Positions 12,716 through 16,225 of a stretch of 16,346 nt of DNA are shown piece by piece. The stretch's first letter is position 1; the number at the start of each line of letters is the position of its first letter. The translations under genes and the position numbers were made by a program. The stretch comes from Promethearchaeota archaeon (GTDB lineage: Archaea > Asgardarchaeota > Lokiarchaeia > Sigyniarchaeales > SOKP01): the NCBI GenBank assembly GCA_018238625.1, contig JABCSY010000093.1:1-16346 (forward strand), given 5' to 3'. Under the pieces are notes generated by a model. It did not search any database. It had not been told where the DNA came from and was given only the letters and a program-made list of their open reading frames with translations.

Positions 12716-13120
12716 ATGAAAGGGTTAAAGAAAAGGCGGGAGTTTAAAACTTCGCTTGAAGACTTGTTAAAAGATATTATGGATAATATCGAGGGTGTGA
12801 AAGCAGCGCAGCTTACGGCGGATACGGGTCAACCACTCGCATCTATACTACCTTCAAGTGCAGACGACATGCGATTAGCTGCCATGACTGCAGCACTTTG
12901 TTCATTGAGCGAACGTGCTATTGGAGAAATGGGTCTTGGCGAATTTGAACAATCGTACGTAAAAGGAAGTAAGGGATACTTATTGATTTTACATGCCGGG
13001 GAAGATAGAGTTTTAAGTGTGTCTACTACAAAAGACGTCAAGCTCGCGCCAATTTTGTATAAGCATTACAAACAACTAGAAGAGGGCGACGAAATAGTAA
13101 GTAGTACGCCACCTATTTAA
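12716..13120 (+). CDS. Roadblock/LC7 (MglB-like) domain protein
   Basis: GVKAAQL...G.PLAS.LP...D..RLAAMTAAL.SLSERA..EMG.GEFEQ.YVKG.KGYLL...AG...VL.V.T...VKL pattern; family is expanded in Asgard archaea. Confidence 0.9.
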   Translation: MKGLKKRREFKTSLEDLLKDIMDNIEGVKAAQLTADTGQPLASILPSSADDMRLAAMTAALCSLSERAIGEMGLGEFEQSYVKGSKGYLLILHAGEDRVLSVSTTKDVKLAPILYKHYKQLEEGDEIVSSTPPI

Positions 13121-13132
13121 CGCCAAAATCAC

Positions 13133-13933
13133 TTATATTTGCTTCCTTAACCCTAATTCTTCTGGTGTTACTTTATGAAATTTTTCATATCCAGGCACAG
13201 TCATTCTTAAAAAAAAAAGATATTTAATCTTGTCCAAAAGATTATGCTTCTTTGGAAAGGCGGGGTATCCCTCGTTAAATTTTTGCTCCCGAAAGTTTTC
13301 TGTGAAGTGGCCTGTACTAAAAAATCTCCCTAAGAAAAGGAATTTTCTAAAAAATCCTACTAATTTAGAGCTTAATGGAGTTACTTGGCTTCTATGTTGA
13401 GACAATGCTTCAACAACGATTTGGATGTCTTTCCACTTGCATTTTAATTTGAAATTTGGTTTGAAAGAGTAGTAATAAAAAACGCGAGCAGGTAATTCGT
13501 TTTTGTTTAGCTTCTTAAGGGCAAAGAAAGGCAATCTACCAGTGTTTATGTGATCGGGATGATAATCAAGAGCATACCAAGGGTCTGGCGCGAATATAAT
13601 ATCAGGTTTTTCAGTACGAATTATATCTACAACTTTATTCAAAGCTGATTTATTCATTGGAAGGTACCCATCGATATAACCTACTTTTAAAACTCGAACA
13701 TGGTTTTTAGTGTATTTAGCGTACACATTGTTTGCGTTTTCTAATTCTCTAGTACGGATTTTTTTCAAACGAGCCCCCTTAAATTCAATGCGATGCGTTC
13801 CAAATTCACAATTAGTCATCAGCACTTCTACAACATCATTTCCTAACCTTAACGATTCAAGAAATGTAAACGGCACGCCAAATTCGATGTCGTCGATATG
13901 TGGAGTAAAAAAAAGAATTTTAAATGGCTTCAT
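13133..13933 (-). CDS. PIG-L / LmbE family metal-dependent deacetylase
   Basis: ILFFTPHIDDIEFG (PHxDD), R..E...A, DG.L, PDIIF, HPDH, H.SQ. ATG 13933 (MKPFK) preferred over the ORF-track TTG 13981, which lies inside cysS. Confidence 0.88.
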   Translation of the reverse strand: MKPFKILFFTPHIDDIEFGVPFTFLESLRLGNDVVEVLMTNCEFGTHRIEFKGARLKKIRTRELENANNVYAKYTKNHVRVLKVGYIDGYLPMNKSALNKVVDIIRTEKPDIIFAPDPWYALDYHPDHINTGRLPFFALKKLNKNELPARVFYYYSFKPNFKLKCKWKDIQIVVEALSQHRSQVTPLSSKLVGFFRKFLFLGRFFSTGHFTENFREQKFNEGYPAFPKKHNLLDKIKYLFFLRMTVPGYEKFHKVTPEELGLRKQI

Positions 13934-13955
13934 ATTTTTAAAAAAATAAATTAAA

Positions 13956-15398
13956 TTATGTCTTTTTGTCTTCGATATCAATACCCAATTCTCTTAACCG
14001 TTCGCGTATTACGTCGCTTAGGTCGTAGATTTTTTTATCTCTTAATTTAGCGCGAATTTCAATTGTTAAATTTATAAGGCTTTTAATGAGTTTATCTTTC
14101 TCATCCATGCTTTCAAACGAGAAGGGCGTCATTTTAGCGTTTAAAGATGGAAAAATCCCGAAAATCTTTTCGATAAATTCTATAAATTTGAAAAATCGAT
14201 CCTTAAATTCTTGGCTTATTTTCAAGCCATCTTGTAGTATAGCTTTGTTGATTTCTTTAAATAATATCAGCAACTCTGCCAAAGCTACAGGAGTGTCAAA
14301 ATCATCCTCCATAGCGTCAACAATTTTGTTTTCCGCAGTTTCGATTTTTGCAATTAAATCGTCAAGTTGCTTTGATTTCGCTTCAGCAAATTCTGCGTCG
14401 TTCACTTTTTTAATCGTGTTTATTAATCGGTTATAAGTATTTTTGGCTTGTTCCATGCTTTCAATAGTATAATTATTTGAACTTCGATAATGACTCGATA
14501 TCAAATACCAACGGATAATCATTGGGTCGTACTGTTTGGCAATATCTGCTACTGTGAAAAAGTTTCCGAGACTTTTAGACATTTTTTCATTTTTTACATT
14601 AACATAACCGTTATGAAGGAAATAATTCGCAATTTTTTTACCAGTGTAAGACTCTGATTGCGCGATTTCGTTCCTGTGGTGTGGAAATTTCAAGTCTTGA
14701 CCTCCACCGTGTAGATCAATTGTTTCGCCTAAAAAGTTCAGGATCATAGCAGAACATTCAATGTGCCATCCAGGTCGTCCAACACCCCAAGGACTTTCCC
14801 AGAAAGGCTCTCCTTCTTTCATTTTTTTCCACAAAGCAAAATCTCGACTATCTAACTTATCCTCTCCAAATGCAGTATCTTGATCGACAGTGTAATCTTC
14901 TTCTTCGCTTTCCTTTCCTTCATCTTTACTCTTTTGAAGAATGGAACTATATTCCGGAAACGATTTAACTGAAAAGTATACGGAACCATTTTTCTCGTAA
15001 GCGTGTTCCTTAGAAATTAGTTCTTGAATAAAATTAATTATAAAATCTATTACTTCGGTTGCACGTGGATTTCGTGTGTCTTGCTCGACATTGAGCATTT
15101 CCATGATCTCTTCGTATTCAGCGATATATTGATCGCTTAAAGTCCTGAAATCGACGTTTTTTTCTTTGGAACTTTTAATTATTTTATCGTCAATATCAGT
15201 ATAATTTTTAACGATATTTACTTTATAGCCCTTAAACTTTAAATATCTGTGAATCAAATCAAAAGCGACCGCGGACTTTGCGTGACCAAGGTGTGGCGAA
15301 CCATATACTGTAACGCCACAAACGTACATCTTGACTTTTCCGGGTTCGATTGGCTTAAATTCTTCCTTTTTAAATGTTAAGCTATTATAAACTTTCAC
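13956..15398 (-). CDS. cysS: Cysteine--tRNA ligase
   Basis: MYVCGVTVY..PHLGH, NYTDIDDKII, DFALWK, WESPWG.GRPGWHIECS, DLHGGG.DLKFPHHRNE, KMSKSLGNF, HYRS, DDFDTP; anticodon-binding C-terminus R...R....Y..SD.IR..L...GI.IED. GTG start with AGGTG upstream. Confidence 0.97.
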   Translation of the reverse strand: MKVYNSLTFKKEEFKPIEPGKVKMYVCGVTVYGSPHLGHAKSAVAFDLIHRYLKFKGYKVNIVKNYTDIDDKIIKSSKEKNVDFRTLSDQYIAEYEEIMEMLNVEQDTRNPRATEVIDFIINFIQELISKEHAYEKNGSVYFSVKSFPEYSSILQKSKDEGKESEEEDYTVDQDTAFGEDKLDSRDFALWKKMKEGEPFWESPWGVGRPGWHIECSAMILNFLGETIDLHGGGQDLKFPHHRNEIAQSESYTGKKIANYFLHNGYVNVKNEKMSKSLGNFFTVADIAKQYDPMIIRWYLISSHYRSSNNYTIESMEQAKNTYNRLINTIKKVNDAEFAEAKSKQLDDLIAKIETAENKIVDAMEDDFDTPVALAELLILFKEINKAILQDGLKISQEFKDRFFKFIEFIEKIFGIFPSLNAKMTPFSFESMDEKDKLIKSLINLTIEIRAKLRDKKIYDLSDVIRERLRELGIDIEDKKT

Positions 15399-15451
15399 GA
15401 TATTTTATACACCTTAATAGAGCGTACTATTAGCGATAAAAGGGGAATAAG

Positions 15452-15531
15452 AGCCAGCGATGGGATTTGCACCCATGATGCTGAAAGCAACGGCTCTGCA
15501 GGCCGCCTCCTTACTACTCGGATACGCTGGC
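15452..15531 (-). tRNA. tRNA-Cys(GCA) with a long variable arm; CCA not encoded
   Basis: Reverse complement: GCCAGCG TA TCCG AGTAGTA AGGA G GCGGC CTGCAGA GCCGT TGCTTTCAGCATC ATGGG TGCAAAT CCCAT CGCTGGC T (80 nt). 7-bp acceptor, 5-bp anticodon stem, anticodon GCA, G37, U73, 5-bp T stem. Confidence 0.93.
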
Positions 15532-15706: not shown

Positions 15707-16225
15707 TTATTTAAAACATTTTCCACAACATTGACCATTTGAATTTGAATTTAAACTACAACATTCGAAATTAAAATCAAATGGTAATACAAAATCGTTT
15801 GTAACGTCGGTAATTATATCCATATAAACCGAAGAGACGTTAGGATTCTTTCTAAAATGGTTATTAACCATCTCATCAATATGAGCTAGTTTAGAACCTA
15901 TTACAAGAACACTGAGATTAAAAGTGCCACTCAATCGAAATGCGTTTAGCATGTAAGGACATTGTTTAACTAATTCAATGGTTTTATTTGGTTCTAAAGT
16001 TTGAACTTCAACTCGTGCCAGGATTAAATCCATGGTTTTAACATTTATACCCGCTTGAAATTTTAAGACCCCTGCTTTTTCAAGTTTCCGAATCCTCATT
16101 CCGATTGTGGGTTGACTCCGATCAACTCGCTTTGCGATTTCTGTATGAGTTAGCAAAGGTTCCTTTTGAATCAATTCAATTATATTCTTGTCTATCTCGT
16201 CGATTTTAAAGACTTGACTTTCCAT
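15707..16225 (-). CDS. Lrp/AsnC family transcriptional regulator with a Cys-rich C-terminal tail
   Basis: IDEIDKNIIELIQ....THTEIAKRVDRSQPTIGMRIRKLEKAGVL wHTH, RAM-like domain (FRLSGTFNL), tail ECCSLNSNSNGQCCGKCFK. Confidence 0.92.
   Translation of the reverse strand: MESQVFKIDEIDKNIIELIQKEPLLTHTEIAKRVDRSQPTIGMRIRKLEKAGVLKFQAGINVKTMDLILARVEVQTLEPNKTIELVKQCPYMLNAFRLSGTFNLSVLVIGSKLAHIDEMVNNHFRKNPNVSSVYMDIITDVTNDFVLPFDFNFECCSLNSNSNGQCCGKCFK

Follow-up and report, generated by a model that had tools for sequence, protein, structure and literature searches.

The window analyzed here, the 16,346-nt contig JABCSY010000093.1, is a whole contig of a 4.29-Mb, 201-contig metagenome-assembled genome (MAG) of a Promethearchaeota archaeon (GCA_018238625.1; 32% G+C; rated 97.9% complete and 7.6% contaminated). 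The organism falls in the Asgard class also called Lokiarchaeia, for which Promethearchaeia is the current NCBI name. On the minus strand the window carries a tRNA-Cys(GCA) gene with a long, paired variable arm, followed by cysS, the gene for cysteinyl-tRNA synthetase (CysRS) (Table 1). ARAGORN, one of the checks suggested in the preliminary description of this DNA, returned tRNA-Cys(gca) at 15451-15531 as the sole tRNA of the window. The Rfam tRNA model RF00005 matched from 15531 to 15452 over its full length (model positions 1-71; 54.7 bits against a gathering threshold of 29; E 1.3e-09), and its alignment showed about 9 to 10 inserted nt between the anticodon stem and the T stem.

Table 1. 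Features of the tRNA-Cys/cysS locus and its neighbors in the window
Feature	Position	Strand	Basis
tRNA-Cys(GCA) gene, 80 nt	15452..15531	-	ARAGORN; Rfam RF00005; cloverleaf minimum-energy fold
13-nt variable region UGCUUUCAGCAUC	15477..15489	-	sequence, Rfam alignment, fold
Anticodon GCA, then G37	15497..15499	-	ARAGORN and Rfam
Discriminator U73	15452	-	Rfam alignment; invariant among aligned relatives
cysS, 480-aa cysteinyl-tRNA synthetase of the canonical class I type	13956..15398	-	PF01406 (1.8e-122) and DALR_2
Spacer, tRNA 3' end to cysS start codon (GTG), 53 nt	15399..15451	-	coordinates
T loop of the tRNA	15465-15471	-	
D loop of the tRNA	15512-15518	-	
PIG-L family gene	13133-13981	-	
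Roadblock/LC7-domain gene	12716-13120	+	
AsnC/Lrp-type regulator	15707-16225	-	

Divided into its structural segments, the RNA reads GCCAGCG UA UCCG AGUAGUA AGGA G GCGGC CUGCAGA GCCGU UGCUUUCAGCAUC AUGGG UGCAAAU CCCAU CGCUGGC U, in a 7/5 acceptor/T frame with CCA not encoded. The tRNA-Cys identity set is present (GCA anticodon, G37, U73 and the pairs G1-C72, C2-G71 and C3-G70), and the D stem has 3 bp plus G13/A22. U73, described as a major determinant for CysRS (PMC13433404, PMC7609411), did not vary among the 36 tRNA-Cys genes aligned. The variable region forms a stem of 3 to 4 bp (G-C, C-G and U-A, possibly preceded by U44-A) closed by a UUC loop and followed by a 3' tail, UC, that ends in C48. 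At 13 nt with a stem-loop between positions 45 and 48 it lies within the range of class II tRNAs, in which the variable region exceeds 10 nt and is paired, and it is close in size to the arms of tRNA-Leu (14 nt, 3-bp stem, A73) and tRNA-Ser (15 nt, G73) in the same genome. An arm of this kind is normally a mark of leucine and serine tRNAs. The minimum-energy fold was a cloverleaf with a fifth hairpin of 4 bp (UGCU/AGCA) at -30 kcal/mol. This energy was not significant relative to shuffled sequences (z -1.65; 13 of 200 shuffles folded equally well), so it is the covariance model and the comparative data that carry the case. The preliminary description had called the gene a tRNA-Cys bearing a class II-type arm. 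That assignment held, and the RNA and the Rfam alignment agreed with all of the sequence details it gave.

The arm is widespread among relatives. A BLAST search with the 80-nt gene against 161 genomes of the class gave a match in 120, the window's own included. Fifty-five of these had an arm of 12 to 14 nt, in 18 sequence variants, and 61 had a loop of 5 nt (44 were classed by pattern; in the other 17, introns within or close to the T arm broke the pattern and the class was assigned by eye). The remaining matches were three tRNA-Ser genes and one gene left unclassified. Two families of the window's order had long arms: the window's own, in which four genera had them, and f4. The counts were 23 long and 14 short in group g1; 23 long and 17 short, plus the unclassified gene, in g12; 4 long and 5 short in g11; 1 long and 2 short in g5; and 4 long and none short in family f4. 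All other sampled genera, including two further families of the class, had the short loop. In full-length alignment the long and short genes differed by a single block of 8 to 10 nt and were otherwise near-identical. An identical arm was found in 20 species despite differing tRNA bodies, and the arm was kept across CysRS divergence down to 63 to 65% identity (L154, L158 and L160).

A covariance model built on 36 intron-free tRNA-Cys genes was run against another Asgard class, where 84 of 87 genomes had a match. The best 30 of these 84 loci, from 30 genomes, were all tRNA-Cys(GCA) with a 5-nt loop. Because all 30 inspected genes of that class have the short form, the long arm is a derived state, confined to one order as far as sampled. 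A phylum-wide BLAST search of 400 genomes with the 80-nt gene gave nothing informative outside the class, where BLAST is too insensitive.

The preliminary description had held that a relative with a short loop in an otherwise identical tRNA would point to a private insertion or an assembly error. Relatives with a 5-nt loop in an otherwise near-identical tRNA exist (for example, L048), but 54 other genomes share the arm, so the insertion is not private, nor is it an assembly error. The broader suspicion of an assembly or binning artefact, or of a pseudogene, draws on the 7.6% contamination estimated for this MAG. It is scarcely credible given that the same arm is present in the assemblies of 54 other species, that all stems are intact in a match of 54.7 bits, that the flanking CysRS is 94 to 95% identical to those of named Promethearchaeota MAGs, and that eight DNA runs from three studies hold at least half of the sampled words of the stretch.

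Pairing within the arm was evaluated on an alignment of 29 distinct 3' halves from the 55 long-arm genes. The four arm pairs were standard pairs in 100% of cells, while controls with the register slid paired in just 37 to 72%. Double changes were found at pair 3 (CG in 26 sequences, UA in 2 and GC in 1) and at pair 4 (UA in 17 and CG in 8), which is absent in four variants with a GNRA loop. The other two pairs varied by wobble only (UA/UG and GC/GU). The covariation score for the arm and T stem jointly was 0.363, versus 0.156 for shuffles, and none of 500 shuffles reached 0.363. U44, G45 and C48, the partner of G15, were invariant in all 29 sequences. The expectation that the arm would be conserved and would covary in relatives was thus borne out across 55 genomes, with complete pairing and compensatory changes at two of the four pairs, and the helix is under selection.

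A separate peculiarity concerns the elbow of the molecule. The T loop, UGCAAAU, has G55 rather than the near-universal U or pseudouridine, and the D loop, AGUAGUA, has A at the position expected to be G18. Among the 36 aligned tRNA-Cys genes, A18 accompanied G55 in 28 and G18-G19 accompanied U55 in 8; in the other Asgard class, all 30 inspected genes had G55 plus A at position 18. Some g12 genes (AGUCGUA with UUC) break the pattern. On these alignments, 18:55 looks like a covarying elbow contact specific to Asgard tRNA-Cys.

The gene is apparently the only tRNA-Cys of its genome. ARAGORN made 19 calls in the whole assembly, one of them Cys, and BLAST with the whole tRNA or with either half found no further match in the assembly. 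Genome-wide, a T arm follows a GCA anticodon arm at one locus. Relaxed ARAGORN settings produced a "tRNA-Cys" on contig C189, which was rejected for its mismatched acceptor stem, and "tRNA-SeC" calls with introns of 47 to 146 nt, which were rejected as junk. The assembly likewise contains one CysRS (a single PF01406 match). SepRS and SepCysS were absent from it (TIGR00470, best 69.9 bits against a cutoff of 380.65; TIGR02539, best 24.5 bits against 365.25). These scores give no support to the tRNA-dependent route from serine through phosphoserine to cysteine that the preliminary description had entertained.

The same description had proposed a second identity for the tRNA, in which SerRS (or LeuRS) would also charge it, giving serine at cysteine codons or feeding conversion to cysteine or selenocysteine via PSTK and SepSecS. 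Some resemblance to tRNA-Ser is real. The layout of the arm is near that of tRNA-Ser (13 versus 15 nt, with one unpaired nucleotide on the 5' side and two on the 3' side), the D arm is closest to those of tRNA-Ser genes within the same genome, and BLAST with the tRNA-Cys gene pulled out tRNA-Ser(GGA/UGA), in place of tRNA-Cys, in three genomes of the sister family f3 (L065, L102 and L103; 75% identity over 71 nt in two and 73% over query positions 1-79 in the third). The genome also encodes SepSecS (contig C107:14551-15708; 386 bits) and a KTI12/PSTK-family gene (contig C116:23013-23765; 122.7 bits). However, the discriminator, described as a major determinant for serine and leucine (PMC7609411, PMC9976931), is an invariant U73 in tRNA-Cys, versus G73 in the genome's tRNA-Ser and A73 in its tRNA-Leu, so the combination of G73 and a long arm that defines tRNA-Ser is not present. 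Moreover, because this is the sole tRNA-Cys found, substantial mis-serylation would strike every cysteine codon, and the tRNA has to supply cysteine with fidelity. SepRS and SepCysS are missing. SepSecS is found in 152 of the 161 genomes of the class, long-arm and short-arm alike, and a link between SepSecS/PSTK and the arm was rejected. The selenocysteine architecture (8/4, 9/4 or 8/5, with an extended D or anticodon stem) is also lacking: the acceptor stem has 7 bp, the T stem 5 bp, the D stem is short, and the tRNA-Sec model RF01852 gave no match at the locus. A double identity for this tRNA is therefore very unlikely on the sequence comparisons. No tRNA-Sec exceeded the Rfam cutoff anywhere in the assembly (RF01852, best 35.7 bits against 47); the gene may be interrupted or unassembled.

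The likeness to tRNA-Ser could also be historical. That the whole gene is a remolded tRNA-Ser was rejected, because, over the acceptor, anticodon and T arms, tRNA-Cys of other orders is the better match; outside the arm, a hand count gave about 79% match to tRNA-Cys of other orders versus about 73% to tRNA-Ser. The parts that resemble tRNA-Ser are the D arm and the variable arm only. This leaves a narrower form of the idea, in which tRNA-Cys was rebuilt on a class II core, its D and variable arms taken from tRNA-Ser, for example as a gene-conversion patch, or converged on it, with a latent serine/cysteine identity held in check by U73 alone. We regard this as improbable and do not take the likeness to tRNA-Ser as a sign of mischarging. 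If it were true, the repeated changes in arm state would reflect selection on serine/cysteine fidelity or an unknown arm-binding factor.

Linkage to cysS might suggest that the synthetase and the long-arm tRNA evolved together, as the preliminary description proposed. It had correctly placed the tRNA gene 53 nt before cysS on the same strand, which is the minus strand. The CysRS is of the ordinary type, matching the Escherichia coli enzyme (1li5/1u0b) at 5.5e-108 over residues 1-477, and its closest counterparts in named records, at 94 to 95% identity, are from Promethearchaeota/Promethearchaeia MAGs, which bears out the Asgard origin that the preliminary description had guessed. Linkage of the two genes in relatives was largely as anticipated: among 48 Asgard cysS loci, tRNA-Cys lay within 450 nt upstream in 41 (37 on the same strand and 4 on the opposite strand), and two of the seven without it are truncated by contig ends. 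Same-strand spacing was 25 to 60 nt in 36 of 37 cases and 298 nt in the other (L148). However, this arrangement does not follow the arm. Genes with the 5-nt loop are linked to cysS as well, and 13 of 29 long-arm loci, mostly in g12 and two of them short loci, have no CysRS within 1.5 kb. The opposite-strand cases (L131, L132, L154 and L169) suggest local inversion of the tRNA gene, and in L138, L144, L145 and L147 the two genes are 0.8 to 2 kb apart by contig coordinates.

Arm state was also compared with a CysRS tree of 49 rows, built by a quick method, in which it is known for 46 rows. The window falls inside a clade of 16 long-arm rows, and a clade of 21 rows has 20 long and 1 short, and the tree as a whole requires at least three changes of state. 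Long-arm L135 is sister to short L133, and the two species resemble each other in CysRS and are nearly the same in the tRNA body. Across the independent transitions among the 46 rows, the arm was tracked by no CysRS column or indel. At 13 of the 15 columns most strongly associated with arm state, L135 agrees with its short sister L133, and it does so without exception at those columns where fewer than 10% of short rows have the long-group residue. The best-associated columns are clade markers. Because no column or indel tracks the arm, there is no sign, at the low power of this comparison, that CysRS had to adapt to it, and the proposed coevolved pair found no support.

These results also bear on the possibility that the arm acts positively, as an element of identity or quality control, required by CysRS or by a lineage-specific factor such as a modification enzyme, or serving in nuclease evasion. 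The long retention of the arm with its pairing maintained and the position of the gene next to cysS in the window's clade would be in keeping with such a role. However, the short-loop sister L133 manages with a near-identical tRNA body and a similar CysRS, the 13 long-arm loci away from cysS and the absence of a tracking column or indel point the other way, and no candidate partner was identified. A required function of this kind is thus quite unlikely.

The explanation that we consider probable is that the gene encodes a functional, class II-shaped, sole tRNA-Cys whose mature form keeps the arm and which is charged directly by an arm-tolerant canonical CysRS. In this member of the Lokiarchaeia it would be the working, and apparently only, tRNA-Cys(GCA). 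The mature tRNA would retain the 3- to 4-bp hairpin, flanked by U44/G45 on one side and on the other by the 3' tail with C48 at its end, and would thereby have the class II shape. The class I CysRS encoded just downstream would attach cysteine directly via GCA, U73 and the acceptor stem; the arm would be unnecessary to the enzyme, which would not have needed to adapt. Class I synthetases approach the tRNA in a way that leaves the variable region facing solvent, so that an arm at this site would be tolerated. Selection would keep the insert as a compact helix with U44, G45 and C48 in place. The arm would have arisen within the window's order of Lokiarchaeia, its state changing by gain, loss or exchange at least three times. 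The presence of the arm in the mature tRNA, charging by CysRS and the reason for tolerance are what we infer from these comparisons. The long-arm tRNA-Cys itself is real, conserved and unusual, and its most likely function is ordinary.

The principal alternative to a retained arm is excision: the extra 8 to 9 nt would be a mini intervening sequence, or what remains of a variable-region intron, and the mature product would be an ordinary class I tRNA-Cys. Archaea are described as having class I tRNAs that mimic class II tRNAs through an intron in the variable arm, as with the 18-nt intron of Thermofilum pendens tRNA-Gly (PMC4810241), and Asgard tRNA genes are described as heavily interrupted at noncanonical sites (PMC11291895; preprint 10.64898/2026.10.13.758758). 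Relatives L051, L052, L060 and L108 have inserts of about 30 nt at the border between variable region and T stem, and the arm is patchy within genera.

Several further points count against a sole tRNA-Cys with a retained arm. The Asgard splicing endonuclease EndA is described as the broad-specificity (alpha-beta)2 type with an L1 loop (PMC5829648). Introns of this clade's tRNA-Cys genes occupy many sites and one is just 12 nt (L050), so that a tiny insert with a relaxed motif is possible, and a helix internal to an intron would show the same hairpin covariation. In four RNA-library runs, which hold only small shares of the stretch, contigs from relatives extend from the tRNA across the spacer into the start of cysS and include the arm without a gap. 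However, these contigs retain the D-arm intron (loose ends at 15519/15521) and run into cysS; they are therefore precursor or DNA and are silent on the arm in the mature tRNA. As to the gene being alone, just 28 tRNA matches were found in the assembly, with 150 of 351 candidates scored, and a second, interrupted tRNA-Cys could be missed; many tRNAs of this genome contain introns, in addition to the contamination of the assembly. Finally, the CysRS association test was low powered, with about 3 independent transitions among 46 rows.

Against excision, restoring a 4- to 5-nt loop would need the removal of only 8 to 9 nt, and the smallest insert seen in these genes is the 12 nt of L050. By our own geometric estimate, a bulge-helix-bulge motif holds a minimum of about 10 to 14 nt, and 8 to 9 nt is below that capacity. 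The literature queried gave no lower length limit for archaeal introns. Scanning for the motif, in its standard form two 3-nt bulges on either side of a 4-bp helix, or for a relaxed form of it, found none in the variable region that would leave a normal tRNA, although the scanner was crude: it is permissive and noisy, with many chance matches per gene, and it recovered the introns of L090 and L111 and missed others. Excision at any of its six matches in the window's tRNA would remove the anticodon or one half of the T arm. A relaxed cut like that of L050 would take out the invariant C48. The insert is placed exactly at the class II arm site and is identical in the 20 species with differing tRNA bodies. 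In addition, the arm is found alongside true introns in the same gene, in the D arm (L008, L017, L072, L080, L082 and L084-86) or the anticodon region (L054-58). A spliced mini-insert is therefore unlikely.

Introns in tRNA-Cys genes of the class deserve mention in their own right. They occur at at least five sites (the D arm, near 30-33, at 37/38, the variable/T-stem border and the T loop), measure 12 to about 33 nt, and some genes hold two (for example, L053/L161 at 137 nt, L060 and L108). Intron-bearing loci include L008, L017, L027, L049-L064, L084-L112 and L161, and the occupied sites differ between close species. Interruptions also appear to mislead annotation of other tRNAs. ARAGORN called a "tRNA-Glu(ctc)" with a 12-nt variable region at contig C95:3537-3637 (+), which by eye reads better as tRNA-Pro(CGG) with a 5-nt variable loop, its D arm and anticodon stem being separated by a noncanonical insert of about 27 nt. 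The calls of "tRNA-Pyl(cta)" on C177 and "tRNA-Stop(tta)" on C22 are probably similar misparses of interrupted genes.

The gene downstream of cysS, which overlaps its 3' end by 26 nt, encodes a PIG-L family protein (GlcNAc-PI de-N-acetylase, MshB/BshB-like). CysRS paralogues and PIG-L deacetylases cooperate in the synthesis of mycothiol and bacillithiol, and the cysS/PIG-L pairing may point to low-molecular-weight thiol metabolism. The cysS/tRNA pair is flanked by the Roadblock/LC7-domain gene and the AsnC/Lrp-type regulator.

No earlier description of an archaeal long-arm tRNA-Cys was found in the open-access PMC and bioRxiv literature. tRNA-Cys is counted as class I throughout life (PMC4810241), and the only long-arm tRNA-Cys described in the reviews queried is the bacterial selC* type, an 8/4 tRNA-Sec mimic (PMC7609411, PMC4810241). 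A census of Asgard introns (10.64898/2026.10.13.758758) covers inserts of at least 10 nt only and uses 70- to 78-nt "compact class I" references (section 4.3); its main text mentions neither "Cys" nor "Lokiarchae." The long-arm tRNA-Cys lies outside that 70- to 78-nt range, and annotation pipelines may misscore such genes or call introns in them. The Lokiarchaeia genes form a natural series, in which single genera hold otherwise near-identical tRNA-Cys genes that have or lack a class II arm, beside one canonical CysRS. This series is a ready-made experiment on how a long variable arm originates and disappears, and it bears on whether a class I synthetase is truly blind to long arms and on how a new long-arm tRNA escapes SerRS and LeuRS.

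With the canonical archaeal class I form of tRNA-Cys, which has a 4- to 5-nt loop, the gene shares GCA, G37, U73, G1-C72/C2-G71/C3-G70, the 7/5 frame and the G15-C48 Levitt pair. It is near-identical to the 72- to 73-nt tRNA-Cys of sister species, and its homology to the tRNA-Cys of other Lokiarchaeia orders and of the other Asgard class is clear. It differs in the block of 8 to 10 nt that turns a 5-nt loop into a paired arm of 12 to 14 nt. Variable-region introns with bulge-helix-bulge motifs, as described in PMC4810241, have in common with it the extra variable-region nucleotides, the class II look and a lineage rich in noncanonical introns, but here the excess is just 8 to 9 nt, no splicing motif was found in the crude scan and U44, G45 and C48 are invariant. 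The bacterial selC* tRNA-Cys (Mukai et al. 2017, as reviewed in PMC7609411) shares cysteine identity (U73, and GCA in some), a long variable arm and, in some lineages, a dedicated CysRS copy. However, selC* tRNAs are tRNA-Sec mimics with an 8/4 acceptor/T frame, a bulged A51a and longer anticodon stems, and they are extra minor isoacceptors of anaerobic bacteria, linked to selB* (PMC7609411). The window's tRNA-Cys, in contrast, is archaeal, 7/5 and the sole tRNA-Cys, served by an ordinary full-length CysRS. The closest precedent is tRNA-Tyr, described as a class II tRNA in Bacteria but a class I tRNA in Archaea and Eukarya (PMC9976931, PMC13433404), in which the substrate of a class I synthetase gained or lost an arm of about 13 nt and 3 to 4 bp with its amino acid identity unchanged. 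The change in tRNA-Tyr is ancient and domain-wide, whereas that in tRNA-Cys lies within a single archaeal order, where GTDB genera still contain both forms.

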